A DNA stretch of 24,000 bases, taken from assembly GCF_008152325.1 (NCBI RefSeq), contig NZ_CP042243.1:415026-439025 (forward strand). Reading direction: 5' to 3'. A program made the position numbers and the translations under genes. A model generated the notes under the pieces. It had not been told where the DNA came from. It saw only the letters and a program-made list of their open reading frames with translations, and ran no database searches. Shown here one piece after another: positions 4,246-19,741 of this stretch; positions within the stretch are counted from its first letter, which is position 1; each line of letters starts with the position of its first letter. The DNA is from Crassaminicella thermophila (GTDB taxonomy: Bacteria; Bacillota; Clostridia; Peptostreptococcales; Thermotaleaceae).

Positions 4246-5352
4246 ATGAAAATAAAAAAAATGAGCGTAGTATGTTTTCTTTTAATGTTACTGGTATTAT
4301 CTGGCTGTGATAAGTCAGAAGCAAAAGGAAAGAAAGTAGAAAAAAAACAGACAGCTGTGGAAGTGATGAAAGTGGAGGCAAAAACCATAACAGAAGATTA
4401 TCATTCAGTAGGAAAAATTTATGCGAGCGAAGAAGTTAAGGTATCTAGTAAGAAAAGTGGAAAGGTAAAAAAAATCTATTTTGATGTAGGAGATGTAGTG
4501 AAGAAAGGAGATGTTTTATATACTCTAGATAATGAAGATTTAGTAATAGACGTTGAATTGAAAAAGAGTCAATATAAAAAAGCTTTAGAAAATGCTAAAA
4601 TGAACTATGAAGATGCTTTGAATAATTTTAATAAAGCAAAAGCTTTATATGAATCCGGCGTTTTATCAAAAAATGCTTATGATAATGCTGAAAAATCTTA
4701 TAGACAAAACAAATTAAATTATGAGCAAGCACAAAAAGATTTAGATTCAAATTCTATTACATTAGATGCTTCTATTAGTGATACAATTATAAAAAGCCCC
4801 ATAGATGGAGTCATAGCAGAGAGAAATATTGAAGTGGGAGAAAATACTACAGCTTCAGATTTTGTCATAGTAAATACAGATAAAGTGATTGTAAGAACCA
4901 GTGTTTCAGAAGATATTGTTAATAAAATCTCTATAGGGGATACAGTTCAGACAAATATTCAATCAAATAATTATATGGGAAAAATAAAAACAATTAGTCC
5001 GGTGGGGATAAATAATGGGAATATCTATCCTGTTGAAATTGAAATAGAGAATAAGGATGGACTCTTAAAGCCTGGGATGTTTGCAGAGGTAAAATTTGAA
5101 ATTGAAAGAAGGGAAAATCAAGTAGTAGTACCTACAAAATCCATATTATCTAGTGGAAATGAAAACTATGTTTATATTGTAGAAGAAAATAAGCCTAAAA
5201 AAGTGATCATAGAGAAAAAAATAATAAAAGACGGATACGTTCAAGTAGAAGGGGAATTAAGCGTTGGAGATTTGTTGATCGTAAAAGGGCAGGAGTATAT
5301 AGATGAAAAAAGTTTAATTTATGTTGTCAATGAAGTAACCTTAAATGAATGA
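4246..5352 (+). CDS. Efflux transporter periplasmic adaptor (membrane fusion protein, HlyD/RND-MFP family), lipoprotein
   Basis: RBS AAGGAG lies upstream of the ATG. Signal peptide with lipobox LVLSGC. Lipoyl-like motifs (GDVVKKGDVLYTLD; SPIDGVIAERNIEVGE) flank a coiled-coil hairpin, followed by a beta-barrel C-terminal region. Confidence 0.85.
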   Translation: MKIKKMSVVCFLLMLLVLSGCDKSEAKGKKVEKKQTAVEVMKVEAKTITEDYHSVGKIYASEEVKVSSKKSGKVKKIYFDVGDVVKKGDVLYTLDNEDLVIDVELKKSQYKKALENAKMNYEDALNNFNKAKALYESGVLSKNAYDNAEKSYRQNKLNYEQAQKDLDSNSITLDASISDTIIKSPIDGVIAERNIEVGENTTASDFVIVNTDKVIVRTSVSEDIVNKISIGDTVQTNIQSNNYMGKIKTISPVGINNGNIYPVEIEIENKDGLLKPGMFAEVKFEIERRENQVVVPTKSILSSGNENYVYIVEENKPKKVIIEKKIIKDGYVQVEGELSVGDLLIVKGQEYIDEKSLIYVVNEVTLNE

Positions 5353-5397
5353 AATAAGGGGGATAATAGGACTTCCCCATAAGTTTTGGAGGTTTTT

Positions 5398-6885
5398 ATG
5401 TCTATTAAACTTAGATTGTTGCTTTCTTATGTGGGTATGATTATTATTCCGGTTATAGTTATATTACTATTAAACTCCATGTTTATTATTTTTGGAGAGA
5501 CTGAACAAGAAGATGTTAAAATAATCCTTAATCCTATGAGAATCGTAGGAAAATATATTGCAAAGCAGACAGAAATAAACAGAAAGTTAAATATAGAAAT
5601 CCTTAATAATAAAGAAAAATTAATAGATCCTTCTTATTTAAAAAAGTATGACCAAGAATTAGAAGCATATTATTCTGGTTTAATCGTAAGGGAGGATGAG
5701 AAAATCGTATATGTTTCAAAAATCTTAGAAGATGAAGGATTATTATCTTCATTGCCAGCATTTAATGAAGTCTTCCATAGAAAAGATTTTTATAGAAATC
5801 ATGGAAAAGGATATATACTGAGGCATCAAAACGATTTTTATTTGAATGATGGTTCTAAGATCTCTATGTTTATTGTTTCAGATACGAATTTAGCAAGAAG
5901 AGATTTCAATAAAATAAGGAATCGAATAACTCTTATAGTTATCAGTGTATTAATTCTAACTACCTTTACATTAACATTTTTTATTTATAAGAGTATTATT
6001 AGATCCATCAAAAATCTTGAATATGCTGCAAATGAAATAAAAAAAGGAAATTTGGATTATGAAATTAAAAAGTATTTAAATGATGAAATAGGAGATCTTA
6101 GTCTTTCTCTTGAAGAAATGAGATTAAAACTGAAAAATTCTTTGGAAGTACAGAAAAAATACGAAGAAAATAGAAAAAACTTAATTTCAAATATATCTCA
6201 TGATCTTAAGACACCTATTATGTCTATAAAAGGATACATAGAAGGAATAAGAGATGGGATTGCTGATACACCAGATAAGATGGAGAAGTATATAAATACC
6301 ATTTATGAAAAAGCAAGACATATGGAAGGGTTGATTGATGAGTTATTTCTTTTTTCAAAGCTTGATTTGCAGAAAGTATCCTTTGATTTTCAGACTATTG
6401 ATATCATAGAATTTTTAAAATACAGTGTGGAAGATTTAAGCTTTGAGTTAGAAAAAATAGAAGGGAAAATAAGTCTAAATGATGAAAAAGAAAGTATTTT
6501 TGTAAAGGCTGACTTACAAAAGTTAAAGAGAGTAATAGTAAATATTGTAGGAAATTCAGTAAAATATAAAGGAGAAAGCCCCCTTACAATCGATATTTTT
6601 GTAAAAAAAGAGCATGAAGAAGTTATAGTGCAGATCAAAGACAATGGAAAAGGAATTTCAAAAGAAGATCTCCCTTATATTTTTGATCGATTCTATAGAG
6701 CAGATCAATCAAGAAATACTTCTGTAGGAGGAAGTGGATTAGGGCTTGCTATATCTAAACAAATTATTGAAAAACACGGTGGTAAAATGTGGGCAGAAAG
6801 TAAAATAAATATTGGAACAAGTATATTCTTTTCGTTAAAGATTTGTAAAGGGGGTAGTATTGATGAAAAAAATATTGATTATTGA
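5398..6885 (+). CDS. Membrane sensor histidine kinase (HAMP-HisKA-HATPase_c)
   Basis: ATG at 5398 lies 5 nt after GGAGG; the ORF-track TTG at 5386 is less likely. Two TM segments bracket an extracytoplasmic loop. H-box SHDLKTPI, N-box NIVGNSVKY and G-boxes DNGKGI / GGSGLGLAI are present. The gene overlaps the downstream regulator gene by 23 nt. Confidence 0.9.
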   Translation: MSIKLRLLLSYVGMIIIPVIVILLLNSMFIIFGETEQEDVKIILNPMRIVGKYIAKQTEINRKLNIEILNNKEKLIDPSYLKKYDQELEAYYSGLIVREDEKIVYVSKILEDEGLLSSLPAFNEVFHRKDFYRNHGKGYILRHQNDFYLNDGSKISMFIVSDTNLARRDFNKIRNRITLIVISVLILTTFTLTFFIYKSIIRSIKNLEYAANEIKKGNLDYEIKKYLNDEIGDLSLSLEEMRLKLKNSLEVQKKYEENRKNLISNISHDLKTPIMSIKGYIEGIRDGIADTPDKMEKYINTIYEKARHMEGLIDELFLFSKLDLQKVSFDFQTIDIIEFLKYSVEDLSFELEKIEGKISLNDEKESIFVKADLQKLKRVIVNIVGNSVKYKGESPLTIDIFVKKEHEEVIVQIKDNGKGISKEDLPYIFDRFYRADQSRNTSVGGSGLGLAISKQIIEKHGGKMWAESKINIGTSIFFSLKICKGGSIDEKNIDY

Positions 6886-7551
6886 GGATGATACTAGCAT
6901 TGCTGAGTTAGAACGGGATTATCTTAATATTAATGGATTTTCTGTAGAAATAGAAAACACAGGACTTAAAGGTATAGAGCGAGCGCTGAAGGAAAAGTTT
7001 GATTTAATTATATTGGATTTAATGCTTCCAGAGATAGATGGGTTTCAAATCTGTAAAGAATTAAGAGAAAATTTAGATATTCCAATTCTCATGGTTTCAG
7101 CGAAAGGAGAAGGAATTGATAAAATAAGGGGATTAGGACTTGGAGCAGATGATTATATTACCAAACCTTTTAGTCCCAATGAATTAGTAGCAAGAGTCAA
7201 ATCACATCTAAATAGATATGAAAGATTGACCAATAGGAGAAAAAACAAGAGGAAATAATCGAAGTCAATGGCCTTACTATAGACCCTTATTCAAGAAGAG
7301 TATATGCAAATAATAAGGAAGTAAATTTAGCTTCCAAAGAATTTGATGTCTTATTGCTTCTAGCAAGGAATCCAAATCGTGTTTTTCGAAAGGAAGAAAT
7401 CTTTGAGAGAGTGTGGGGATTAGATTCTTTAGGAGATGTATCTACAGTTACAGTGCATATTAGAAGAATTCGTGAAAAAATTGAATATGATGCATCAAAC
7501 CCTAAATATATTGAAACCTTATGGGGGGTTGGATATAGATTTAAAATATAG
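6863..7551 (+). pseudogene. OmpR-family response regulator split by a frameshift in an A6 run
   Basis: The receiver domain (KILIIEDD...DLMLPEIDG...SAKG...DDYITKPF) runs in one frame to the stop at 7256-7258. The winged-helix domain (EEIIEVNGLTIDPYSRRVYANNKEVNLASKEFDVLLLLARNPNRVFRKEEIFERVWG...GVGYRF) runs in the -1 frame, open from 7237 to 7551. The switch point is the AAAAAA run at 7240-7245. Confidence 0.8.
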
Positions 7552-10452: not shown

Positions 10453-12081
10453 ATGAAAATCCTTTTTGAATTGCTTGGTGGTCTTGGATTATTTCTCTAT
10501 GGTATGACAATAATGGGAGATGGTCTAGAAAAATCTGCTGGGGACAAAATGAAGAGAATTATTGAGGTGCTTACTAGTAACAGAGTGATGGCTGTGCTAG
10601 TTGGTGCTTTAGTAACCATGATTATACAGAGTAGTAGTGCTACTACTGTAATGGTTGTAGGTTTTGTAAATGCAGGAATTATGAATTTAGTACAAGCTAC
10701 AGGTGTAATTATGGGTGCGAATATTGGAACAACCATAACAGCTCAAATTGCATCTTTAAAGTTAACAGAGATAGCACCTATTGTAGTAGGGCTTAGTGTA
10801 GGGGTTTGGATTTTTACTAACAATAAAAAAGTGAAAAATGTTGCAGAAATCTTTATAGGATTTGGAATATTATTCATTGGTATGGATTTTATGAAGCATG
10901 CTGTAAAACCATTGCGAGAATATGAAGGCTTTAGAACAATGTTACTTAGCTTCGGGAAAGGTACATTTACGGATTCCTTAATGGCAATTTTTACTGGATT
11001 TTTCGTTACGGCTATTATACAAAGTAGTAGTGCTACTACAGGTATTCTGATTGCATTAGCAAGTGAAGGATTATTGCCAATAGAAGCTTCTTTACCGATT
11101 ATTTTTGGGACAAACATTGGAACTTGTGTTACTGCAATGTTATCAAGTATTGGTGCAAATAGAACAGCAAAAAGAGCTGCTTTTATCCATTTTATGTTTA
11201 ACGTATTTGGAACATTAATATTCATGCTATTATTTAAAAATATTACTATTACTATGGTAAAACATATTTCACCAGATAATGCAGCAAGACAGTTAGCAAA
11301 TGCTCATACATTCTTCAATATTGCTAATACTTTACTACTATTACCGTTTGCTACTTTATTAGTAAAATTAGCTAATAAAATTATGCCAGTGAAAGATTTT
11401 GAAATAGCAGATAAAATAGGTATTAAATATCTTGATGACAGGATGCTAGAAACTCCATCTGTTGCTATTGTTCAGGTGATAAAAGAGACATTAAATATGG
11501 GTAATTTAGTTTTAGATAGCTATAAAAAAGCGATGGATGCTTTCTTTGAGAGAAATGAGAAATTAGCACATGAAACCTTTGAAATAGAAAAGACTATAAA
11601 TAGTATGGAACGTGAAATTGCTGAATACTTGGTAAAACTATCTAATAAATCTCTATCTGCGAAACAGAACGAGATTGTGAATGGACTATTTAATACAATT
11701 AACGATATTGAAAGAGTAGGAGACCATGCAGATAACTTGGCAGAGCTAGCTGTGTTTAGAGTAGATAATAAATTAGATTTTAGTGAACAGGCTATAAGTG
11801 AATTAAAAGCAATGCATGATAGAGTTATGAAGTCTTATACCCAGGCAATACTTGCTTTAAGAACAGGAGATACAAATATTGCAAAAAGAATTATTGAAAG
11901 GGAAGGAGAGATTGATCATATGGAAAGATCTCTTCGAGCAAGTCATATTGAAAGATTAAATAAACAGCAGTGTATGCCAACATCAGGGGTAATATTCCTA
12001 GATATTATAAGTAATTTAGAAAGAATAGGAGATCATGCAGACAATATAGCTTTAGCTGTAATGGATGCTGCAGATAAGTAG
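10453..12081 (+). CDS. Na/Pi cotransporter family protein with C-terminal PhoU-like repeats
   Basis: Duplicated Na_Pi_cotrans motifs (QSSSATTVMVVGFVNAG... and QSSSATTGILIALA...). Two C-terminal PhoU-type helical repeats end in ERVGDHADN / ERIGDHADN. Confidence 0.9.
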   Translation: MKILFELLGGLGLFLYGMTIMGDGLEKSAGDKMKRIIEVLTSNRVMAVLVGALVTMIIQSSSATTVMVVGFVNAGIMNLVQATGVIMGANIGTTITAQIASLKLTEIAPIVVGLSVGVWIFTNNKKVKNVAEIFIGFGILFIGMDFMKHAVKPLREYEGFRTMLLSFGKGTFTDSLMAIFTGFFVTAIIQSSSATTGILIALASEGLLPIEASLPIIFGTNIGTCVTAMLSSIGANRTAKRAAFIHFMFNVFGTLIFMLLFKNITITMVKHISPDNAARQLANAHTFFNIANTLLLLPFATLLVKLANKIMPVKDFEIADKIGIKYLDDRMLETPSVAIVQVIKETLNMGNLVLDSYKKAMDAFFERNEKLAHETFEIEKTINSMEREIAEYLVKLSNKSLSAKQNEIVNGLFNTINDIERVGDHADNLAELAVFRVDNKLDFSEQAISELKAMHDRVMKSYTQAILALRTGDTNIAKRIIEREGEIDHMERSLRASHIERLNKQQCMPTSGVIFLDIISNLERIGDHADNIALAVMDAADK

Positions 12082-12106
12082 AGGGTGATTTTTCATCCTC
12101 TTTTTT
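12081..12106 (+). terminator. Rho-independent terminator
   Basis: Stem GAGGGTGA / TCATCCTC (one G-U pair) with loop TTTT, followed by TTTTTT. Confidence 0.7.
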
Positions 12107-12225
12107 AATTTTAAAAAAATACAATAAAATTTATCATACTCGACATATTTCTACAAAAAAATATGAAATTTTCGTATAAAATAAAGATATTAAGGGAAAC
12201 ATGCAATGAGAGGACGAAGAATAAT

Positions 12226-12717
12226 ATGCTGCAAATACCTATACTTGTGTTTTTTATAAGATCAATTCCTGAGGGTATCCTTTTAATTTTTTCAAGCTAT
12301 ATGTTGTTAAATAAAAAAATTAATAAAAAAAGACTTGCTTTATCTGGGCTTTTATTAGCCATAAGTACATATATTGTAAGATTGCTTCCTATTCATTTTG
12401 GTGTGCATACAATGATTATTATCATGCTATATATTTTTTTTACAGTAAAAATAAACAACATGCATATAATGGAATCTATTCCTATATGTATCATATCTAT
12501 GATTATAATTTTTATTTGTGACTGGATTATTGTACTTTTTTATGTAAATATATTACATCTTGATTTTATATATATATTTAAAGAACCCGTAAAAAGTGCT
12601 ATATATAGTATTCCTTCTTTAATAATGACTTTTTTTATCGTTCTTATGATATTTTGTATCAAAAAATATAGAAATAAGAAGGTAGATTCACATGTATCTG
12701 ATCGAAAGAGTATCTAA
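12226..12717 (+). CDS. Small polytopic membrane protein of unknown function, first gene of the agr cassette
   Basis: Preferred start is ATG 12226 (MLQIPILVFF...), with a purine-rich GAGAGG about 12 nt upstream. The ORF is open from 12163. It has about 5 hydrophobic helices with short K/N-rich loops and no soluble domain. Its 3' end overlaps agrB by 26 nt. Confidence 0.6.
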   Translation: MLQIPILVFFIRSIPEGILLIFSSYMLLNKKINKKRLALSGLLLAISTYIVRLLPIHFGVHTMIIIMLYIFFTVKINNMHIMESIPICIISMIIIFICDWIIVLFYVNILHLDFIYIFKEPVKSAIYSIPSLIMTFFIVLMIFCIKKYRNKKVDSHVSDRKSI

Positions 12718-13354
12718 TAATATTGCAGGGAAAATAGCTGCTACTTTAAAGCTAGATAAAGAGCAGGAAGCCGTATTAGCTTATGGGGCTTTTGGATTGC
12801 TTGAAACTATATTAGCAATCATTTTAGTCTTAGTTTTTGGGAAAATATTTGGGGTATTATTAGAAGCAATTATTATTTCTTTTGTATCGGCAATATTTAG
12901 AAAATATTCAGGAGGAGCCCATGCAACATCTCCTAATCGATGTGCAGCAATTGGGGTAATTGTATCAGTTGGATTAGGTATATTTGTGAATAAAATAAGT
13001 ATAAATATTTTTAGTTTACTAATATTTGGACTATTAACCTTTTTTATTGTTTTATATATAACTGTTAAATATGCTCCTGTGGATACACCGAATAAACCAA
13101 TAAAAAAGCTAGAAAGAAGGAAAAAATTAAAAATAAAATCATTGATTATACTCTTTTTATTCCTTATAATTACATTAATTTTAACAAGATACTACATAAA
13201 ATTAGGAGATGTAAGTTTGCTTAGCATCATAGCTTCTATTTTACTAGGACTGCTTTGGCAGGCAATTACATTGACATCTTTAGGACATCTAATAATACAT
13301 AAATTAGATGATTCCTTAAGAAAAATAGCAACTTTAGGGGGGAGGGGGATATGA
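12692..13354 (+). CDS. agrB: AgrB-family accessory gene regulator B (AgrD-processing membrane endopeptidase)
   Basis: The motif RKYSGGAHATSPNRC places His at residue 77 and Cys at residue 84. These are the same positions and spacing as the catalytic pair of S. aureus AgrB. The protein is multi-TM, about 220 aa, and sits immediately upstream of an AgrD-like ORF. Confidence 0.9.
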   Translation: MYLIERVSNNIAGKIAATLKLDKEQEAVLAYGAFGLLETILAIILVLVFGKIFGVLLEAIIISFVSAIFRKYSGGAHATSPNRCAAIGVIVSVGLGIFVNKISINIFSLLIFGLLTFFIVLYITVKYAPVDTPNKPIKKLERRKKLKIKSLIILFLFLIITLILTRYYIKLGDVSLLSIIASILLGLLWQAITLTSLGHLIIHKLDDSLRKIATLGGRGI

Positions 13355-13491
13355 TGAAAAACAGATTATTTACAATGATGGCTGTTTTTGGTATGACAGT
13401 ACTAACATTTGTTGCTCAAACAGTATCAGCTTCAGCTTGTATATGGTCAGCTTATCAGCCAGAAGAGCCAAAATTATTACGTGAAGAATAA
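13351..13491 (+). CDS. agrD: AgrD-type autoinducing peptide precursor (46 aa), absent from the ORF track
   Basis: Translation is MMKNRLFTMMAVFGMTVLTFVAQTVSASACIWSAYQPEEPKLLREE. It has an amphipathic/hydrophobic leader, a single Cys, and an acidic QPEEPK..REE tail. Its ATG overlaps the agrB stop (ATATGATG). Confidence 0.85.
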   Translation: MMKNRLFTMMAVFGMTVLTFVAQTVSASACIWSAYQPEEPKLLREE

Positions 13492-13494
13492 TGT

Positions 13495-13516
13495 AGGAGG
13501 TCATATTTGACCTCTT
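13495..13516 (+). terminator. Weak hairpin after agrD (possible partial terminator)
   Basis: Stem GAGGTCA (13497-13503) / TGACCTC (13508-13514), extendable by 2 weak pairs. The downstream tract TTGCATTATTTTT is not a clean U-run. Confidence 0.35.
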
Positions 13517-13552
13517 GCATTATTTTTAAAAGTATATGATAGGTGTGAGAGC

Positions 13553-15247
13553 ATGCATCAGATAGAAAATAAATTCCAAAAAAAAGTTTATGAAATGTTA
13601 TTTGTTTCAAAGTTATTGTCACTATTATTCTGTGGAATTATTATTTTTATACAATACAATGTACATTTTTTAAAAAATCTACATAAATATATGAGCTTTT
13701 CTATGATTACAGCGATGCTGGGTATAGGTATGTTGACATTAATCTATAAGATATGGATATTTTCTTATAAGAATAACAAGATTACTTCAAAGGTATCTGC
13801 AACAGATATAATTGAAATAATATTGTTTATTGGTATTTTTTCTATTTTGATTATTTTTTCAGGAGTACATACTAGTCATTATAAATTTATATTTTTATTT
13901 ATTATTATTCCAACTACTATGCAATTTGGAATCAATTATGGGATAGGGGTTTCTAGTATATGTTCTATACTAGTTTTATTGATAGATTACATGGCTTTAC
14001 CACGAAATACTATTAATATATTTTTTGAAACAGACTTAATTTTAACAGGGGTTTTTTTATTAACTGCATGGTCTTTAGGTTACTATGTAAATATTGAAAA
14101 AGAATATAGGAAAGAAATCTCTCAGTTAGCCAATATGGATGAGCTAACAGGAGTTTATAATCATAGATTTTTTCAGGAGGCTTTATCAGAGAAAATAGAA
14201 GTGTCTAAAAATAAAAAAACATCTGTAGCACTGTTGTTTATAGATATCGATTATTTTAAATATTATAATGATCTTTATGGACATCAAGCAGGAGATAAGG
14301 TATTAGAAAAAATTGGAGATATATTAAAAAATTTAATTAGAAAAGAAGATATTGTAGCAAGATATGGAGGAGAGGAATTTGCAATAATCTTGCCAAATAC
14401 CAAAGAAGAGCAAGCTTTAAATATTGCTGAGAAAATACGAAGTACAATTGAGAAAATTGAATTTGAAGGAGAGGAAAATTTACCTAATAAGAAGCTTACC
14501 GTATCTGTTGGGGTTTCTGATTTTCCGAACAAAGCAAAATCTAAAGAAGAATTAATCAAGGCTTCAGATGATGCACTTTATAGAGCAAAATTTTTTAATA
14601 AAAACCGGGTAGAAACATATCATTCTGTATTAGAAGAATTAAAAAAAGATATACAACAAGAGCATATTGACTTGATTAGTTCTGTTAAAACATTAATAAG
14701 CGTAATTAATGCAAAGGATCGTTATACCTATGGACATACGGAAAGAGTGGTTATATACTGTAAAATGCTTGCAGATCGATTAGGTTTAAGAGAAGAGGAC
14801 AAAAAGATTTTAAGATATGGAGCATATTTGCATGATATAGGAAAAATTGAAATTGGCAAAGATATTTTAAATAAAAAAATGCCTCTTACAGATGAGGAAT
14901 GGAAACTTTTAAAGAAGCATCCTGAAAATGGTGCTGAAATCATAAGAGCTGTTGACTCTCTTAAAGATGTTATTCCTTTGATCTTTTATCATCATGAACG
15001 CTATGATGGAAATGGATATCCAAAAGGGTTAAAAGGGGAAGAGATTCCTTATTTGGCAAGAATATTAACGGTTGCAGATAGTTTTGATGCTATGACTTCT
15101 AATCGTCCATATCAATCAAGAAAAAGTTTTGAAGATGCAATAGAAGAATTAAGAAGATGCAGCAAAAGCCAATTTGATCCTAAGATTGTAGATGTTTTTA
15201 TAGAAATAATTGAGAAAAACATAGATAAATTTGATCGAATGAGGTAA
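13553..15247 (+). CDS. Integral-membrane (about 6 TM) GGDEF diguanylate cyclase fused to an HD-GYP phosphodiesterase domain
   Basis: About 180 aa of hydrophobic N-terminus come first. The GGDEF domain shows DELTGVYNHRFF, FIDIDYFKYYNDLYGHQAGD, an RxxD I-site (RKED) 5 aa before RYGGEEF. The HD-GYP domain shows GHTERV, LHDIGK and HHERYDGNGYPKGLKGEEIP. Confidence 0.9.
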   Translation: MHQIENKFQKKVYEMLFVSKLLSLLFCGIIIFIQYNVHFLKNLHKYMSFSMITAMLGIGMLTLIYKIWIFSYKNNKITSKVSATDIIEIILFIGIFSILIIFSGVHTSHYKFIFLFIIIPTTMQFGINYGIGVSSICSILVLLIDYMALPRNTINIFFETDLILTGVFLLTAWSLGYYVNIEKEYRKEISQLANMDELTGVYNHRFFQEALSEKIEVSKNKKTSVALLFIDIDYFKYYNDLYGHQAGDKVLEKIGDILKNLIRKEDIVARYGGEEFAIILPNTKEEQALNIAEKIRSTIEKIEFEGEENLPNKKLTVSVGVSDFPNKAKSKEELIKASDDALYRAKFFNKNRVETYHSVLEELKKDIQQEHIDLISSVKTLISVINAKDRYTYGHTERVVIYCKMLADRLGLREEDKKILRYGAYLHDIGKIEIGKDILNKKMPLTDEEWKLLKKHPENGAEIIRAVDSLKDVIPLIFYHHERYDGNGYPKGLKGEEIPYLARILTVADSFDAMTSNRPYQSRKSFEDAIEELRRCSKSQFDPKIVDVFIEIIEKNIDKFDRMR

Positions 15248-15294: not shown

Positions 15295-15392
15295 ACACAA
15301 ATTTTACACATTTATTCTATTTTTTCTTTATATTTCAGGTTTATGATATAGATATAAGGAAGAACAAAATAAATTTTTAAGGAGTGGTGAAA

Positions 15393-16085
15393 ATGTTAAG
15401 AAAAAAAATAATGAAGGTTATTATGACATCCTGTTTGTGTATGGCATTACTAGTTCCATCTATGGCTTTTGCAGAAAAGGCAGATGGAATACAAGAGCAA
15501 AGAGGTTTAATCGCTAAAAGAATTGAAAAGTTCAAAGAAAACAGAGAAGAAAGAAAAGCTAAGAGAGAAGAAAGAAAAGAAAAAAGGGAAGAAAGAAAGG
15601 AAAAATTCTTAGAATTAGTAAAGGAGTATGTACCAGATACTTTAAATAATTGGAAAGAACAATTTGATGAGCACAAAGCTGTTCATGATCAAATCAGAGA
15701 AATTAAGATGCAATTAAGAAAAGAGAAAAAAGAAGAAATTAAAGAAGATCTTAAAAAGATGAGAGCTGAACTGAAGGAAAAGATTGAAGCTGGAGAAATT
15801 ACAAAAGAAGAAGCTAAAAATAAGTTGAAAGAGTATATTGAATCTATTAAAGAAGAAAGAAAAGAGATAATTCAGGAGAAAAAAGAAGAACTTGCTGATG
15901 AAATAGAAGCACAAAAAGAAAGACGTGAAGAAGTAAAAGAACTTAGAAAGATTTTAAGAGGGGCTATAAAAAATAAAGATTATGAAAAAATTACAGATAC
16001 ATTTAATAAATTATATGAGCATTTATTAGATCATATAGAATTTGATTATAAAAAGCTTGAAGAATTAAAAAAGATAGAATTATAG
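15393..16085 (+). CDS. Secreted, highly charged Lys/Glu-rich helical protein of unknown function
   Basis: ATG 15393 lies 8 nt after AAGGAG. Signal peptide MLRKKIMKVIMTSCLCMALLVPSMAFA|EK. The mature part is almost entirely K/E/R-rich and predicted coiled-coil. Confidence 0.7.
   Translation: MLRKKIMKVIMTSCLCMALLVPSMAFAEKADGIQEQRGLIAKRIEKFKENREERKAKREERKEKREERKEKFLELVKEYVPDTLNNWKEQFDEHKAVHDQIREIKMQLRKEKKEEIKEDLKKMRAELKEKIEAGEITKEEAKNKLKEYIESIKEERKEIIQEKKEELADEIEAQKERREEVKELRKILRGAIKNKDYEKITDTFNKLYEHLLDHIEFDYKKLEELKKIEL
15543..15605 (+). repeat. 3 x 21-bp tandem repeat encoding (REERKxK)3
   Basis: AGAGAAGAAAGAAAAGCTAAG / AGAGAAGAAAGAAAAGAAAAA / AGGGAAGAAAGAAAGGAAAAA, in frame within the 15393-16085 CDS. 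Confidence 0.8.
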
Positions 16086-16305: not shown

Positions 16306-16656
16306 ATGGCGAAATATTTAGATACTACAAAAAAGGCTGAAATTAATATACGTTTGTCAGAATTTGAAATGCCACCCATGCAGGATGTATTAATTGTAGG
16401 AAAAAGGGCACCTATTGGGGCTGAAGGAGCTAGAAGAATGGTTGACATTTTATCACCTGATCAGTATGATATTATTAAAATTGAACATGATACTATAGAA
16501 GCGATTGTTGTAAGGAGAACATTACTAAAAATGCTTCCTAAAGATAAGCTAGTTAATTTAATTTTAGAAGAAGGGGGGAAAATTGCTAACGAATCTATTA
16601 TTCTAAAAATGCAGATTAATATTACAATTCAAGTTAGCAGATCAATAGATATATGA
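16306..16656 (+). CDS. Hypothetical 116-aa soluble protein, translationally coupled to the CBS-GGDEF gene
   Basis: RBS GGGGGAG precedes the ATG. I recognised no motif. Its stop overlaps the next start (ATATGA, 4-nt overlap at 16653-16656). Confidence 0.55.
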   Translation: MAKYLDTTKKAEINIRLSEFEMPPMQDVLIVGKRAPIGAEGARRMVDILSPDQYDIIKIEHDTIEAIVVRRTLLKMLPKDKLVNLILEEGGKIANESIILKMQINITIQVSRSIDI

Positions 16657-17510
16657 TTAGAAAAATTTCTGAAATCATGATTAAAAATTTTGTAGCAGTT
16701 GACACTTGCGATGGCGTGTTAAAAGCAGAAAGAATGCTTACAGAAAATAATGCAGAAGGAGCTTTGGTATTTGAAGGTACTACTTTAGTAGGTGTTGTAA
16801 CTTATAAGGATTTATTAAGATCACATCCAAATAGAATTGTTGCAGATGCAATGAATACAAAAATATTCTACATATCTTTGGAAGCTTCTTTGTGGAAGGC
16901 AGAAGAGATGTTTAAAAAACATCATACAGAAATACTAATCGTAAAGGAAAATGCTACTCCTGTAGGATTTATAACAAAAGCAATCCTTTATGCAGAACTA
17001 GGAAAATACATAGATCCATTAACAGGATTAAATAGAAGTGATTATATTTATTATAAGGCAGATGAAATAATGAAAAATAAGAGGGAAATAGGAATCATTT
17101 TTATAGATGTAAATAATTTTGGATATATTGATAAGAATTATGGTCATACGATAGGTGATGTTATTTTAAAAGAAATAGGAAGTATTCTGAAAAATAATAT
17201 TCCTAATGATACATATACTTGTAGATTTGGTGGTGATGAGTTTGTTGTAGTTGCTCCTTATGATTTAAATGAGTGTAAGAATCTTGCTCAAAACTTAAGG
17301 AAAACAATTGAATCATATCATTTTATAAATAATGTACCAGTAAGTATAACTACGGGCATAGCTGGATGGAAAGTTGGAAAAAATGTCAACCATAATTTTA
17401 GAAATATTATAAATATCATGAATGCAGCTAGTTTAGCATCTACAAAAGCGAAAAAGGAAGAAGATGGATTATCTGTAGCAGAGAGTTTTGAAATTATTGA
17501 TATTGCATAA
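16653..17510 (+). CDS. CBS-pair + GGDEF domain protein (putative diguanylate cyclase)
   Basis: Two CBS motifs lie in the first ~115 aa (IMIKNFVAVD...LVGVVTYKDLL; AMNTKIFYISL...PVGFITKAIL). They are followed by DPLTGLNR, FIDVNNFGYIDKNYGHTIGD and RFGGDEFVVVA. No RxxD I-site precedes the GGDEF motif. Confidence 0.85.
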   Translation: MIRKISEIMIKNFVAVDTCDGVLKAERMLTENNAEGALVFEGTTLVGVVTYKDLLRSHPNRIVADAMNTKIFYISLEASLWKAEEMFKKHHTEILIVKENATPVGFITKAILYAELGKYIDPLTGLNRSDYIYYKADEIMKNKREIGIIFIDVNNFGYIDKNYGHTIGDVILKEIGSILKNNIPNDTYTCRFGGDEFVVVAPYDLNECKNLAQNLRKTIESYHFINNVPVSITTGIAGWKVGKNVNHNFRNIINIMNAASLASTKAKKEEDGLSVAESFEIIDIA

Positions 17511-17517
17511 ATATGAA

Positions 17518-17546
17518 TAAAAAGCAACCTTTTGGTTGCTTTTTAT
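17518..17546. terminator. Bidirectional terminator between convergent genes
   Basis: AAAAGCAACC-TTTT-GGTTGCTTTT, a perfect stem flanked by A-runs and T-runs. Confidence 0.8.
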
Positions 17547-17568
17547 TAAAGGAACCAAATAAGCATGT

Positions 17569-18285
17569 TTAAACATCAAACCAAAGCTCAAATTGATCTT
17601 TGTTTTTGATACTAGTCAATATCCTGTCTTTTGCTTTTGGTGCATGCTTATAGATATGGAGCATCAAATTCTTTGTATCCTCTCTAGCTGTTTGTTTATC
17701 AACAGGACATGGACTTTTCACAATAGGAATAGAATGTCTTTTTGATGCAGCTAGAATTTGATGTTCACTAACGTATACCAAAGGTCTAATTACTTTTATG
17801 TTTCTATCTTCTAAATAAGTTTTTGGTAAGAAAGTTTTTATACGTCCATTATAAAGCATATTCATAAATAAAGTTTCTATGGTATCTTCTTTATTATGGC
17901 CTAACGCCAGGACGTTTAATCCCCTATTTTGCATAACATTATACAAAGCGCCGCGCCGCATATTAGCACAAAGAGAGCAAGGATTCTTTTCTTTTCGTAA
18001 ATCGAAGACGATTTTGCCAATATGAGTATTTTCTATGGTATATGGAACTTTTATCTTATTGCAAAAGTCTTTTAAAGGAGTAAAATTAAAATTTTCAAAT
18101 CCCATAGAAATTGTAACTGCTTCAAGGTGATATTTAACGGGACTAAATTTTTGAAATAATTTTAGGGCATAAAGTAGTGTCATACTATCCTTACCACCAG
18201 ACAAACCTACGGCTATTTGATCATTTTCATTGATTAAATTAAATTCTGATACTGCTTTTCTTAAATTCCCAAGTATTTTTTTCAC
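17569..18285 (-). CDS. ttcA: PP-loop ATP pyrophosphatase, TtcA-like tRNA 2-thiocytidine biosynthesis family
   Basis: PP-loop SGGKDS. Cys motifs CSLCANMRRG and SPCP are typical of TtcA-type tRNA thiolases. Length is 238 aa. Confidence 0.7.
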   Translation of the reverse strand: MKKILGNLRKAVSEFNLINENDQIAVGLSGGKDSMTLLYALKLFQKFSPVKYHLEAVTISMGFENFNFTPLKDFCNKIKVPYTIENTHIGKIVFDLRKEKNPCSLCANMRRGALYNVMQNRGLNVLALGHNKEDTIETLFMNMLYNGRIKTFLPKTYLEDRNIKVIRPLVYVSEHQILAASKRHSIPIVKSPCPVDKQTAREDTKNLMLHIYKHAPKAKDRILTSIKNKDQFELWFDV

Positions 18286-18532
18286 GGATGAAAACCCTTT
18301 CTAAAAATAATGTTGTAATTATTATATTATACATAATAAAAGACAATGGCAATAATAATTTTGCTATTGTCATATATTATGTTTATAAAAAACTTTGTTT
18401 TAAAAAGGAGAATTTTGTATAATAATGGTTAAGGTGGAAATTATGGATCTTGAAGAAAGAATAAAGAATATTTTACAAACTATGGGTTGAAGTTTATTTG
18501 TCGTTTTAATTTAAGCATTTTAGGAGGTCAAT

Positions 18533-19741
18533 ATGCAATTTAACTTAAATAATTTCTTGTTTTCATTATCTTATGCTTTAGACTTTGTAGAGATGGATAT
18601 TTTAGGCGTAGCATCAAACCATTCAAAAAGAGTTGCTTATATTGCATATAAATTAGGTGGAGTATTAGGGCTAAATCAAGAAGAACTTTTTGATTTAGTT
18701 TCTTTATCTATATTGCATGACAATGGAGCGAGTCAAAAAGTTTTGCATGATAAATTACAAAATAGAGGGAAAGATAAGAAGAAAGCTTTAGAAAGTATAA
18801 AGGAACATTGTATCATAGGTGAAAAAAATATTTATAAATTTCCATTTTTTACAGATGTTAAAGATGTCATTAAATATCATCATGAAACGTATGCAGGAAT
18901 GGGCTTTTTTGGATTAGATGGAAAGGAAATTCCTTTAATGTCTCAGATTATTTTTTTAGGAGATACTATTGAAAATAAATTTAATGTAAAGGGTGCGTCT
19001 ATTCAAGAAAGGAATGTTATCAATACGTTCATAAGGGAAAATAATAAAATTTTGTTTTCACCAAGTATTAGTGAAGCTTTTATGGAGATTAGCAAGCATT
19101 CAAGTTTTTGGTTGGATTTAAAAGATGAATTTATCAATAATGCTTTAGATGAAATGGTACCGAAATATTATAAAGAGCTTACATGGGAAGAAGTTCGAAA
19201 AATAACGAGTATTTTTTCAAATATTATTGATGCAAAATCTCAATTTACACAAAAACATTCTAAAGAGCTGGCTGAAAAAATAGCATTAATGGCAGATTAC
19301 TATAAAAAAAATAATGAAGAAAAAATGAAACTAATGATTGCAGCAGATTTACATGATGTAGGAAAATTAGCAATCAGTAATGCAATTATAGATAAACCTG
19401 GGAGACTGACAAAGGAAGAGATGAATATAATTCAAGAGCATGCTTACTATACAAGAGTGAGTTTACAGCAAATAGATGAATTTGAAGATATTGCAAAATG
19501 GGCTTCAAATCATCATGAAAAATTAGATGGTTCAGGATATCCATATGGATTAAAGGGAAAAGAACTTGATTTTAATTCACGGCTTATGACATGCTTAGAC
19601 ATATATCAAGCATTGACGGAGAAAAGGCCTTATCGTGAAGGATTGACACATAGTGAGAGTATGAAAGTGCTAAGAAATATGGCTAAAGATGGATTGATTG
19701 ATGGCAATATAGTAGAAGATATTGATAAAGTGTTTCATTAA
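18533..19741 (+). CDS. Tandem HD-GYP domain protein (degenerate N-terminal copy, canonical C-terminal copy)
   Basis: Strong RBS AGGAGG. Domain 1 shows HSKRV, LHDNGA and HHETYAGMGFFG (GYP replaced by GFF). Domain 2 shows HSKELA, LHDVGK and HHEKLDGSGYPYGLKGKEL. Confidence 0.85.
   Translation: MQFNLNNFLFSLSYALDFVEMDILGVASNHSKRVAYIAYKLGGVLGLNQEELFDLVSLSILHDNGASQKVLHDKLQNRGKDKKKALESIKEHCIIGEKNIYKFPFFTDVKDVIKYHHETYAGMGFFGLDGKEIPLMSQIIFLGDTIENKFNVKGASIQERNVINTFIRENNKILFSPSISEAFMEISKHSSFWLDLKDEFINNALDEMVPKYYKELTWEEVRKITSIFSNIIDAKSQFTQKHSKELAEKIALMADYYKKNNEEKMKLMIAADLHDVGKLAISNAIIDKPGRLTKEEMNIIQEHAYYTRVSLQQIDEFEDIAKWASNHHEKLDGSGYPYGLKGKELDFNSRLMTCLDIYQALTEKRPYREGLTHSESMKVLRNMAKDGLIDGNIVEDIDKVFH

Follow-up and report, generated by a model that had tools for sequence, protein, structure and literature searches.

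In the agrBDCA locus of Staphylococcus aureus, agrB and the peptide precursor gene agrD are followed by genes for a polytopic sensor kinase, AgrC, and a LytTR regulator, AgrA. Many clostridia, including Clostridium perfringens and Clostridium botulinum, carry agrBD without agrCA; some clostridial agr loci are described as "lacking agrC and agrA" (PMC12312760, a 2025 primer), and the route from the Agr peptide to sporulation is described as unknown (PMC11210211). The locus analyzed here lies in a 24,000-nucleotide (nt) stretch of the Crassaminicella thermophila genome (contig NZ_CP042243.1, positions 415,026 to 439,025 of the forward strand; hereafter the window, whose internal coordinates are used throughout). 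In this locus, agrB and agrD are preceded by a small membrane protein gene (upORF, upstream open reading frame) and followed by a gene for a 564-amino-acid protein that joins six transmembrane (TM) helices to GGDEF and HD-GYP domains (6TM-GGDEF-HD-GYP). The evidence leans, on balance, toward peptide sensing by the 6TM domain, probably together with upORF, and toward a clostridial module with a cyclic di-GMP (c-di-GMP) output.

Like S. aureus agrBDCA, the locus encodes AgrB together with an AgrD whose ring of five residues is anchored by a Cys and whose C-terminal tail is acidic, and directly 3' of agrD it encodes a polytopic six-helix sensor that is more variable than its outputs and co-diverges with the peptide. 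In contrast to S. aureus, this sensor has no detectable homology to an AgrC-type sensor, its outputs are GGDEF and HD-GYP domains instead of an HPK10 kinase, an extra 5-TM gene precedes agrB, and a terminator-like hairpin lies between agrD and the candidate receptor gene. The domain scan showed that the gene after agrD is not an AgrC (HPK10 / HATPase_c_5 kinase) and that no AgrA (LytTR) gene adjoins it. Family matches and coordinates confirmed a preliminary description of the locus, according to which agrB and agrD are followed, after a gap of exactly 61 nt, by a GGDEF/HD-GYP enzyme in place of AgrC and AgrA.

The autoinducing peptide (AIP) of C. perfringens is [CLWFT] (PMC12312760), and its published operon consists of CPE1563, CPE1562, agrB (CPE1561), and agrD, the 135-bp agrD lying between CPE1561 and CPE1560 (PMC2706048). 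In a search with a pattern of the peptide core (CLWFTHQPEEP), all eight of the eight metagenome contigs with the C. perfringens AgrD core (CLWFT) carried upORF-agrB-agrD and then a 563-amino-acid orthologue with 56% identity; at locus L091 (L numbers denote individual loci), the order is a DUF5317 gene, upORF, AgrB (214 amino acids), AgrD (44 amino acids, 135 bp), and the orthologue. The Agr-like system of C. perfringens is the same module, with DUF5317-upORF-agrB-agrD and a 135-bp agrD; upORF is the orthologue of the gene directly 5' of agrB (CPE1562 by position), and the DUF5317 protein corresponds by position to CPE1563. Since the gene order on the contigs matches the published operon, CPE1560 is probably, on the basis of gene order, the 6TM-GGDEF-HD-GYP orthologue; the published operon ends at agrD (PMC2706048), whereas the downstream enzyme is counted here as part of the module. 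This gene after C. perfringens agrD (CPE1560 by position) is discussed in no searchable paper.

In Proteobacteria, quorum signals are known to act on c-di-GMP turnover through RpfR, a PAS-GGDEF-EAL protein that binds BDSF (Burkholderia diffusible signal factor), and through RpfC/RpfG, which relay the diffusible signal factor (DSF) to an HD-GYP regulator. The present module shares with these systems the passage from a quorum signal to c-di-GMP turnover, within one polypeptide as in RpfR and by way of HD-GYP as in RpfG. It differs in that their signals are fatty acids, sensing there is by a separate kinase or by a PAS domain in the cytoplasm rather than by a 6TM domain, and they belong to another phylum. 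We know of no peptide-type quorum signal acting on c-di-GMP. A literature search that did not cover Cooksley 2010, Ohtani 2009, and Wuster & Babu 2008 found no paper linking agrBD with a diguanylate cyclase, GGDEF, or HD-GYP, and, as the preliminary description had supposed, no AIP receptor of this type is described in the searchable literature. The locus combines known kinds, agr quorum sensing and quorum-signal control of c-di-GMP, and the reading of a peptide signal into c-di-GMP is suggested as the new element.

Association of the sensor domain with agrBD

A synteny census with one genome per species covered 80 loci with GGDEF-HD-GYP relatives, using profiles of upORF, AgrB, and the 6TM domain. 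Full-length relatives of the 564-amino-acid protein (57-68% identity over 98-100% of the length) occur in many Clostridia. AgrB was present in 31 of the 34 loci carrying the 6TM domain, always directly upstream, on the same strand, and with a small AgrD reading frame between, and in 0 of the 46 loci lacking this domain (Fisher p = 4e-19). Among the three exceptions, L016 and L022 are contigs cut at the 5' end of the gene, and L027 is the sole true exception; the AgrB and AgrD of L035 are divergent and were missed by tblastn. These counts indicate that the sensor domain, not the catalytic domains, predicts adjacency to agrBD, and conservation of the agrB-agrD-[TM-GGDEF-HD-GYP] synteny, which the preliminary description had set as a test, proved strongly positive. 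Besides C. thermophila, at least 30 species have this arrangement, C. perfringens among them. The module spans Clostridium, Romboutsia, Geosporobacter, and Tepidibacter as well as metagenome-assembled genomes of Lachnospiraceae, Christensenellaceae, Caldicoprobacterales, and Thermacetogeniaceae. The genes flanking it in the window are not conserved between species, and the conserved unit is therefore the module itself.

Within the 31 modules, the four residues after the ring Cys are hypervariable, and the flanks (SAC and YQPEEP) are conserved. A partial Mantel test of ring-residue distance against sensor distance, controlled for catalytic-domain distance, gave r = 0.42-0.44 (p <= 0.0005), a correlation that can be supportive only, as Mantel tests on related sequences overstate significance and phylogenetic non-independence remains. 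The same partial test against AgrB gave weaker values of 0.24-0.27.

The sensor is also found on other outputs. Members of the 6TM family fall into lengths of ~555-575, 614-623, and 470-493 amino acids, which correspond to GGDEF-HD_5, PAS-HisKA-HATPase_c, and HisKA-HATPase_c architectures (Pfam), respectively. C. tepidum (L013, 3735-13692) has three tandem units with differing outputs and two different AgrD peptides, namely upORF-agrB-agrD-[6TM-GGDEF-HD-GYP] in unit 1, upORF'-[6TM-PAS-kinase, 617 amino acids] in unit 2, and upORF''-agrB2-agrD2-[6TM-PAS-...] in unit 3, where the end of the locus cuts the gene. The genomic context could be read for 12 kinase-type members, including the two from C. 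tepidum: four lie directly 3' of agrD (L013 module 3, L082, L084 HK3, and L095), five have an upORF paralogue alone in front (L013 module 2, L084 HK1, L084 HK2, L094, and L096), one has upORF-agrB-agrD at a distance of 1 kb (L081), and two have neither (L083 and L097). The swapping of the 6TM domain onto kinase outputs beside agrBD fits a role as peptide sensor, as does the co-divergence of ring residues and sensor.

Orphan kinases CBO0336 and CBO0340 of C. botulinum group I have been described as "5 TM-PAS-HisKA-HATPase" with their function listed as undetermined (PMC11210211). The C. tepidum kinases, which share this size and architecture and carry the 6TM sensor of the family, lie 3' of upORF paralogues and of agrB2-agrD2, and C. 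tepidum AgrD1 carries the C. botulinum AIP-1 core (core as given in PMC12312760). The likely match to CBO0336/CBO0340 is drawn from size, architecture, and species relatedness, and these proteins differ from the enzyme in the window in having a kinase output instead of c-di-GMP enzymes.

Further loci show variations in gene content around the sensor. L084 (878-9793) has four upORF paralogues and three 6TM-PAS kinases with a single agrBD. A DUF5317 membrane protein (PF17248), which is absent from the window, is often encoded in Clostridium, either directly 5' of upORF or beside the kinase (L003, 3989-4540; L013, 3735-4280; L091, 4790-5356; L095, 262-816; and L082, 2079-2627). In L003 (88-1951), an AgrC-like kinase (HATPase_c_5 + SPOB_a) followed by a second, divergent AgrB is located 3 kb upstream of the module on the same contig, and a single genome can therefore carry both types of receptor.

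The membrane sensor and its catalytic outputs

The N-terminal membrane domain of ~190 amino acids has six helices in the AF2 model (pLDDT 83.7), in agreement with the preliminary estimate of a "~180-aa, ~6-helix membrane N-terminus", and TM6 is continuous in this model with the linker helix to GGDEF. The profile PF25323 (6TM_PilS) matches 15 of 47 orthologues at E <= 0.01, and its gathering score of 27 is exceeded by orthologues P0021 (32.0 bits) and P0161 (28.8 bits); the 6TM domain of the window itself scores too low for Pfam to report a PF25323 match. Among solved structures, ImcA (8wcn; E = 0.014, probability 1.0, TMq 0.56-0.59) matches the fold best, with a sequence identity of 11-12%. 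The family is narrow in sequence space, as an exhaustive phmmer search with the N-terminal 195 amino acids returned only 133 clusters among 1.84 billion representatives; a word-indexed search with the same segment missed even the query protein.

The topology of the domain was predicted by applying the positive-inside rule to the AF2 helices. In this predicted topology, variability within the 6TM domain is highest in outer loop 1 (amino acids 41-45), and S108, K111, D145, F158, and D161, at the predicted outer ends of TM4-TM6, are invariant even when the kinase-type paralogues are included. In the modelled structure, a variable outer loop combined with invariant outer-face residues would fit a pocket for a peptide with a constant scaffold and variable side chains.

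The two output domains retain the motifs that the preliminary description had read from the sequence (GGEEF with an RxxD I-site, and an intact HD-GYP), together with the metal and substrate residues. The GGDEF domain has an RKED I-site, the five residues IVARY, and GGEEF, and D231, D233, N239, D248, R270, and K346 are invariant in the orthologue alignment. The HD-GYP domain has HDIGK and HHERYDGNGYP, with invariant H395, H427-D428, H456, H480-H481-E482, G488-Y-P490, and D509/D512. HD-GYP motifs are intact in every orthologue, and GGEEF or GGDEF is intact in most. Since HD-GYP is always intact and GGDEF is degenerate in three members, phosphodiesterase would be the activity kept throughout, and most members are potentially bifunctional. 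The three, deep-branching L035, L038, and L041, have a degenerate GGDEF (GNDEF, GSDEF) and have lost the I-site with HD-GYP intact, which suggests a phosphodiesterase-only form of the sensor protein. Motility, toxin production, and sporulation of clostridia are promoted by Agr and are likewise favoured when c-di-GMP is lower. From this overlap it may be guessed, as speculation, that the peptide favours hydrolysis.

Organization of the module in the window

The G+C content of the window is ~30%, and all genes of the module are on the plus strand (Table 1). The agrB start lies inside upORF (26-nt overlap), and the agrB stop and agrD start overlap by 4 nt (ATGA); owing to these overlapping reading frames, upORF, agrB, and agrD are tightly coupled. 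The preliminary description took position 12226 as the start of agrB, which is instead the start of upORF, a fourth gene that had been overlooked.

Table 1. Features of the module and its surroundings, in window coordinates (aa, amino acids).
Feature	Position	Strand	Details
HAMP-HisKA-HATPase_c histidine kinase	5386-6885		sole kinase in window, 6 kb from module; not AgrC/LytTR type
REC-only response regulator	6860-7258		no output domain; overlaps the kinase gene
Na_Pi_cotrans/PhoU gene (Na/Pi-cotransporter)	10453-12081		directly upstream of module
Terminator-like hairpin and T-run	12080..12101	+	9-bp stem, 4 GC pairs, TTTTTTAATTT tail
Candidate sigma-70-like promoter before upORF	12110..12137	+	TTTAAA-16-TATCAT, 9/12 consensus
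upORF	12226..12717	+	163 aa, 5 TM helices (AF2, pLDDT 85.6)
agrB, membrane peptidase processing AgrD	12692..13354	+	PF04647, E=2e-42, full-length match
agrD, autoinducing-peptide precursor	13351..13491	+	46 aa; TIGR04223, E=8e-8
Strong hairpin straddling agrD stop codon, then U-rich stretch	13484..13527	+	20-bp stem, -27.2 kcal/mol, z = -8.1 vs shuffles
6TM-GGDEF-HD-GYP protein	13553..15247	+	564 aa; public annotation "diguanylate cyclase"
PilS-like six-helix TM sensor domain, candidate peptide sensor	13553..14122	+	aa 1-190
GGDEF diguanylate cyclase domain	14129..14605	+	aa 193-351; PF00990 E=7e-50; TIGR00254 E=1.5e-55
HD-GYP phosphodiesterase domain	14690..15187	+	aa 380-545; PF13487 HD_5 E=9e-41, match 2-170 of 170

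AgrB carries GGAH...NRC, in which His and Cys, as read from the sequence, are 7 residues apart (GGAH-x6-C). AgrD consists of a hydrophobic leader, the core SA-CIWSA, and the acidic tail YQPEEPKLLREE, and at least 31 orthologues have the common layout C-x4-[YHF]-[QE]-P-x-x-P, with x4 hypervariable. Both marks of an agr-type locus, an AgrB with His and Cys and an AgrD with leader, ring, and tail, were thus found.

The upORF protein has no match in Pfam, NCBIfam, or PDB folds, and no profile similarity to AgrB, the 6TM domain, or the AgrC-like sensor. Conserved residues include R12-x2-P15-E16, R52-LLP-I-x2-G-x-H61-T62, and P130-S131. Its public annotation is hypothetical protein FQB35_02025 of 138 amino acids, with a start 25 codons too late; the N-terminus left out, which includes the R-x2-P-E motif, aligns in more than 30 homologues. 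Because several kinase-type members have an upORF paralogue without agrBD, no partner accompanies the 6TM sensor more constantly than upORF. The only untruncated agrBD-linked locus without a detectable upORF (tblastn and hidden Markov model searches) is L005, which has agrB-agrD-6TM enzyme. A role of upORF as AgrD leader peptidase was considered, as the polar residues conserved in it are concentrated at what is predicted to be the outer face, and was set aside because it fails to explain the upORF-kinase pairs without agrBD.

The hairpin after agrD had been described as weak and without a clean U-tract. Its stem is in fact strong, and its position is conserved across loci: nearly every related locus has an equivalent hairpin 3' of agrD, in many cases with a classical T-tract, and ~20-35 nt remain before the next start codon. 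An alternative reading of the hairpin in the window has an 11-bp core followed by AUUAUUUUU. The element is probably a partial intrinsic terminator or a 3' stabiliser. A promoter scan found no sigma-70-like site inside the 61-nt gap, which agrees with the earlier remark that a properly spaced sigma-A promoter is missing there; the only hexamer pair, TTGCAT / TATGAT, was rejected for its 14-nt spacing and the lack of room for a ribosome-binding site. Of the read-through co-transcription proposed earlier, the promoter-free gap remains in support, and the conserved terminator-like hairpin weakens simple co-transcription. Judged from the sequence, the most economical reading is that partial read-through probably sets the receptor below agrBD in abundance.

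At the 5' side, the hairpin with a T-run ends the Na/Pi-cotransporter gene and marks the border of the module. The candidate promoter before upORF belongs to a kind of sigma-70-like consensus match that is no commoner in the window than in shuffles. The preliminary description held that the window has neither a histidine kinase nor a LytTR regulator. The second part stands, with no LytTR regulator among the window reading frames scanned, and the first does not, given the kinase of non-Agr type listed in Table 1. This kinase and the REC protein (5386-7258) are located downstream of HlyD-type and AcrB-type efflux genes (81-2615 and 4246-5352; resistance-nodulation-division efflux).

Directly 3' of the GGDEF-HD-GYP gene, 15384-16085 encodes a 233-amino-acid protein with a signal-peptide-like N-terminus and a repetitive Lys/Glu-rich body (EERKAKREERKEKREERKEK), which has no significant family match in Pfam or NCBIfam and is not conserved in related loci. 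Genes related to c-di-GMP are dense in the region 16306-19741: a 116-amino-acid reading frame without family assignment (16306-16656) has its stop inside the gene of a CBS-GGDEF protein (16653-17510), and 18533-19741 encodes one protein with two stretches of HD_5/HD-GYP. Scanning the window for Rfam families and tRNAs gave 0 matches, and therefore no c-di-GMP riboswitch is present locally.

Competing explanations and a candidate link from Agr peptides to c-di-GMP

In the proposed mechanism, AgrB would remove the C-terminal tail of AgrD and close a five-residue thiolactone ring, predicted to be cyclo-CIWSA with or without a short N-terminal tail, and the released peptide would build up outside the cell. 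The PilS-like six-helix domain, probably together with the 5-TM upORF protein, would read the peptide, and binding at the outer face may shift the balance between GGDEF cyclase and HD-GYP phosphodiesterase through the continuous TM6-to-linker helix. Cell density would in this way be translated directly into the c-di-GMP level, without a phosphorelay, and the hairpin after agrD would probably hold the receptor mRNA below the agrBD mRNA by partial read-through. The hypothesis of the preliminary description, direct sensing of the thiolactone peptide by the membrane domain, thus finds partial support.

Several points weigh against this mechanism. The preliminary description had proposed a remote-homology comparison of the N-terminus with AgrC/VirS/ComD sensor domains, and no AgrC homology was found: hhalign gave a probability of 0.3% against the AgrC-like protein of L003, which has no PF25323 match and shares no Pfam family with the 6TM domain. 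Because of this missing profile similarity and the lack of a PF25323 match in the AgrC-like kinase, the 6TM domain, which is PilS-like instead, occupies the position of AgrC and is not its homologue; the PDB has no AgrC transmembrane structure, only cytoplasmic modules. The 6TM topology is a prediction, the co-divergence carries the phylogenetic caveat given above, and a strong, conserved terminator-like hairpin lies between agrD and the enzyme gene. Some members of the 6TM family have no agrBD nearby (L027, L083, and L097), and several have upORF only. To these are added the behaviour of the nearest relatives of the sensor and the place of VirS in C. perfringens, which are taken up with the explanations they favour.

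The 6TM domain might instead act within the membrane and cell-autonomously, contacting the AgrD precursor or leader, AgrB, or upORF and reporting production load rather than population density, which we consider rather unlikely. The orthologues match a PilS-like TM family, and PilS senses membrane pilin. PilS-like proteins and Pseudomonas aeruginosa ImcA resemble the module in having a six-helix membrane domain that feeds a signalling output; they differ in responding to membrane protein partners (pilin and IsmP) rather than a diffusible peptide, and in having no agr linkage. ImcA, the best fold match, uses its TM region for a regulatory contact with a second membrane protein (PMC10904736), and by analogy the nearest profile and fold relatives would point to intramembrane protein contacts rather than soluble ligands. 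The one-to-one pairing of upORF paralogues with 6TM kinases without agrBD (L013 module 2, L084, L094, and L096) can also be read in this way, although receptors for peptides produced elsewhere would account for such pairs more easily. Recognition of the precursor would explain the co-divergence with the peptide core equally well, but an external ligand is the better fit for a domain whose most variable segment is predicted to be an extracellular loop and whose invariant polar residues lie at the predicted outer face.

It is likewise doubtful that the enzyme senses another membrane or envelope cue and adjoins agrBD because it serves common behaviours or regulates agr, the peptide being read by VirS/AgrC-type kinases elsewhere. 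The unlinked VirS of VirS/VirR is accepted as the peptide receptor in C. perfringens, and the orthologue there may be one of two receptors. The canonical AgrC-like kinase and AgrB 3 kb from the module in L003, the conserved hairpin, which suggests partly separate expression, and the richness of the window in other c-di-GMP genes agree with such an arrangement. However, it leaves unexplained why the sensor domain and not the catalytic domains predicts adjacency to agrBD (31/34 versus 0/46), why the same sensor takes the same position after agrD on a kinase output, and why the sensor co-diverges with the peptide core beyond the catalytic-domain distance. A chance or lineage-specific adjacency without function, for which only the window viewed in isolation would speak, has next to no probability, being refuted by the census with its several families of Clostridia, unrelated flanks, and Fisher p = 4e-19.

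Beyond peptide sensing by the 6TM domain in this module, upORF and the 6TM domain may tentatively be regarded as an unrecognised receptor class for clostridial Agr peptides with interchangeable outputs, a possibility that we put forward with less than even confidence. Its GGDEF-HD-GYP output would carry cell density to c-di-GMP, its PAS-kinase output, of the CBO0336/CBO0340 type, may feed Spo0A, and the class, rather than AgrC/VirS, would be the widespread receptor of "orphan" agrBD.

For the many clostridia that have agrBD without agrCA, C. perfringens and C. botulinum among them, conserved candidate receptor genes beside agrD are now nominated, and peptide quorum sensing is predicted to be linked directly to c-di-GMP in Firmicutes. 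If true, this would add a new output to Agr, would assign functions to two conserved hypothetical membrane proteins as well as to orphan kinases of the sporulation type, and would provide new anti-virulence targets.

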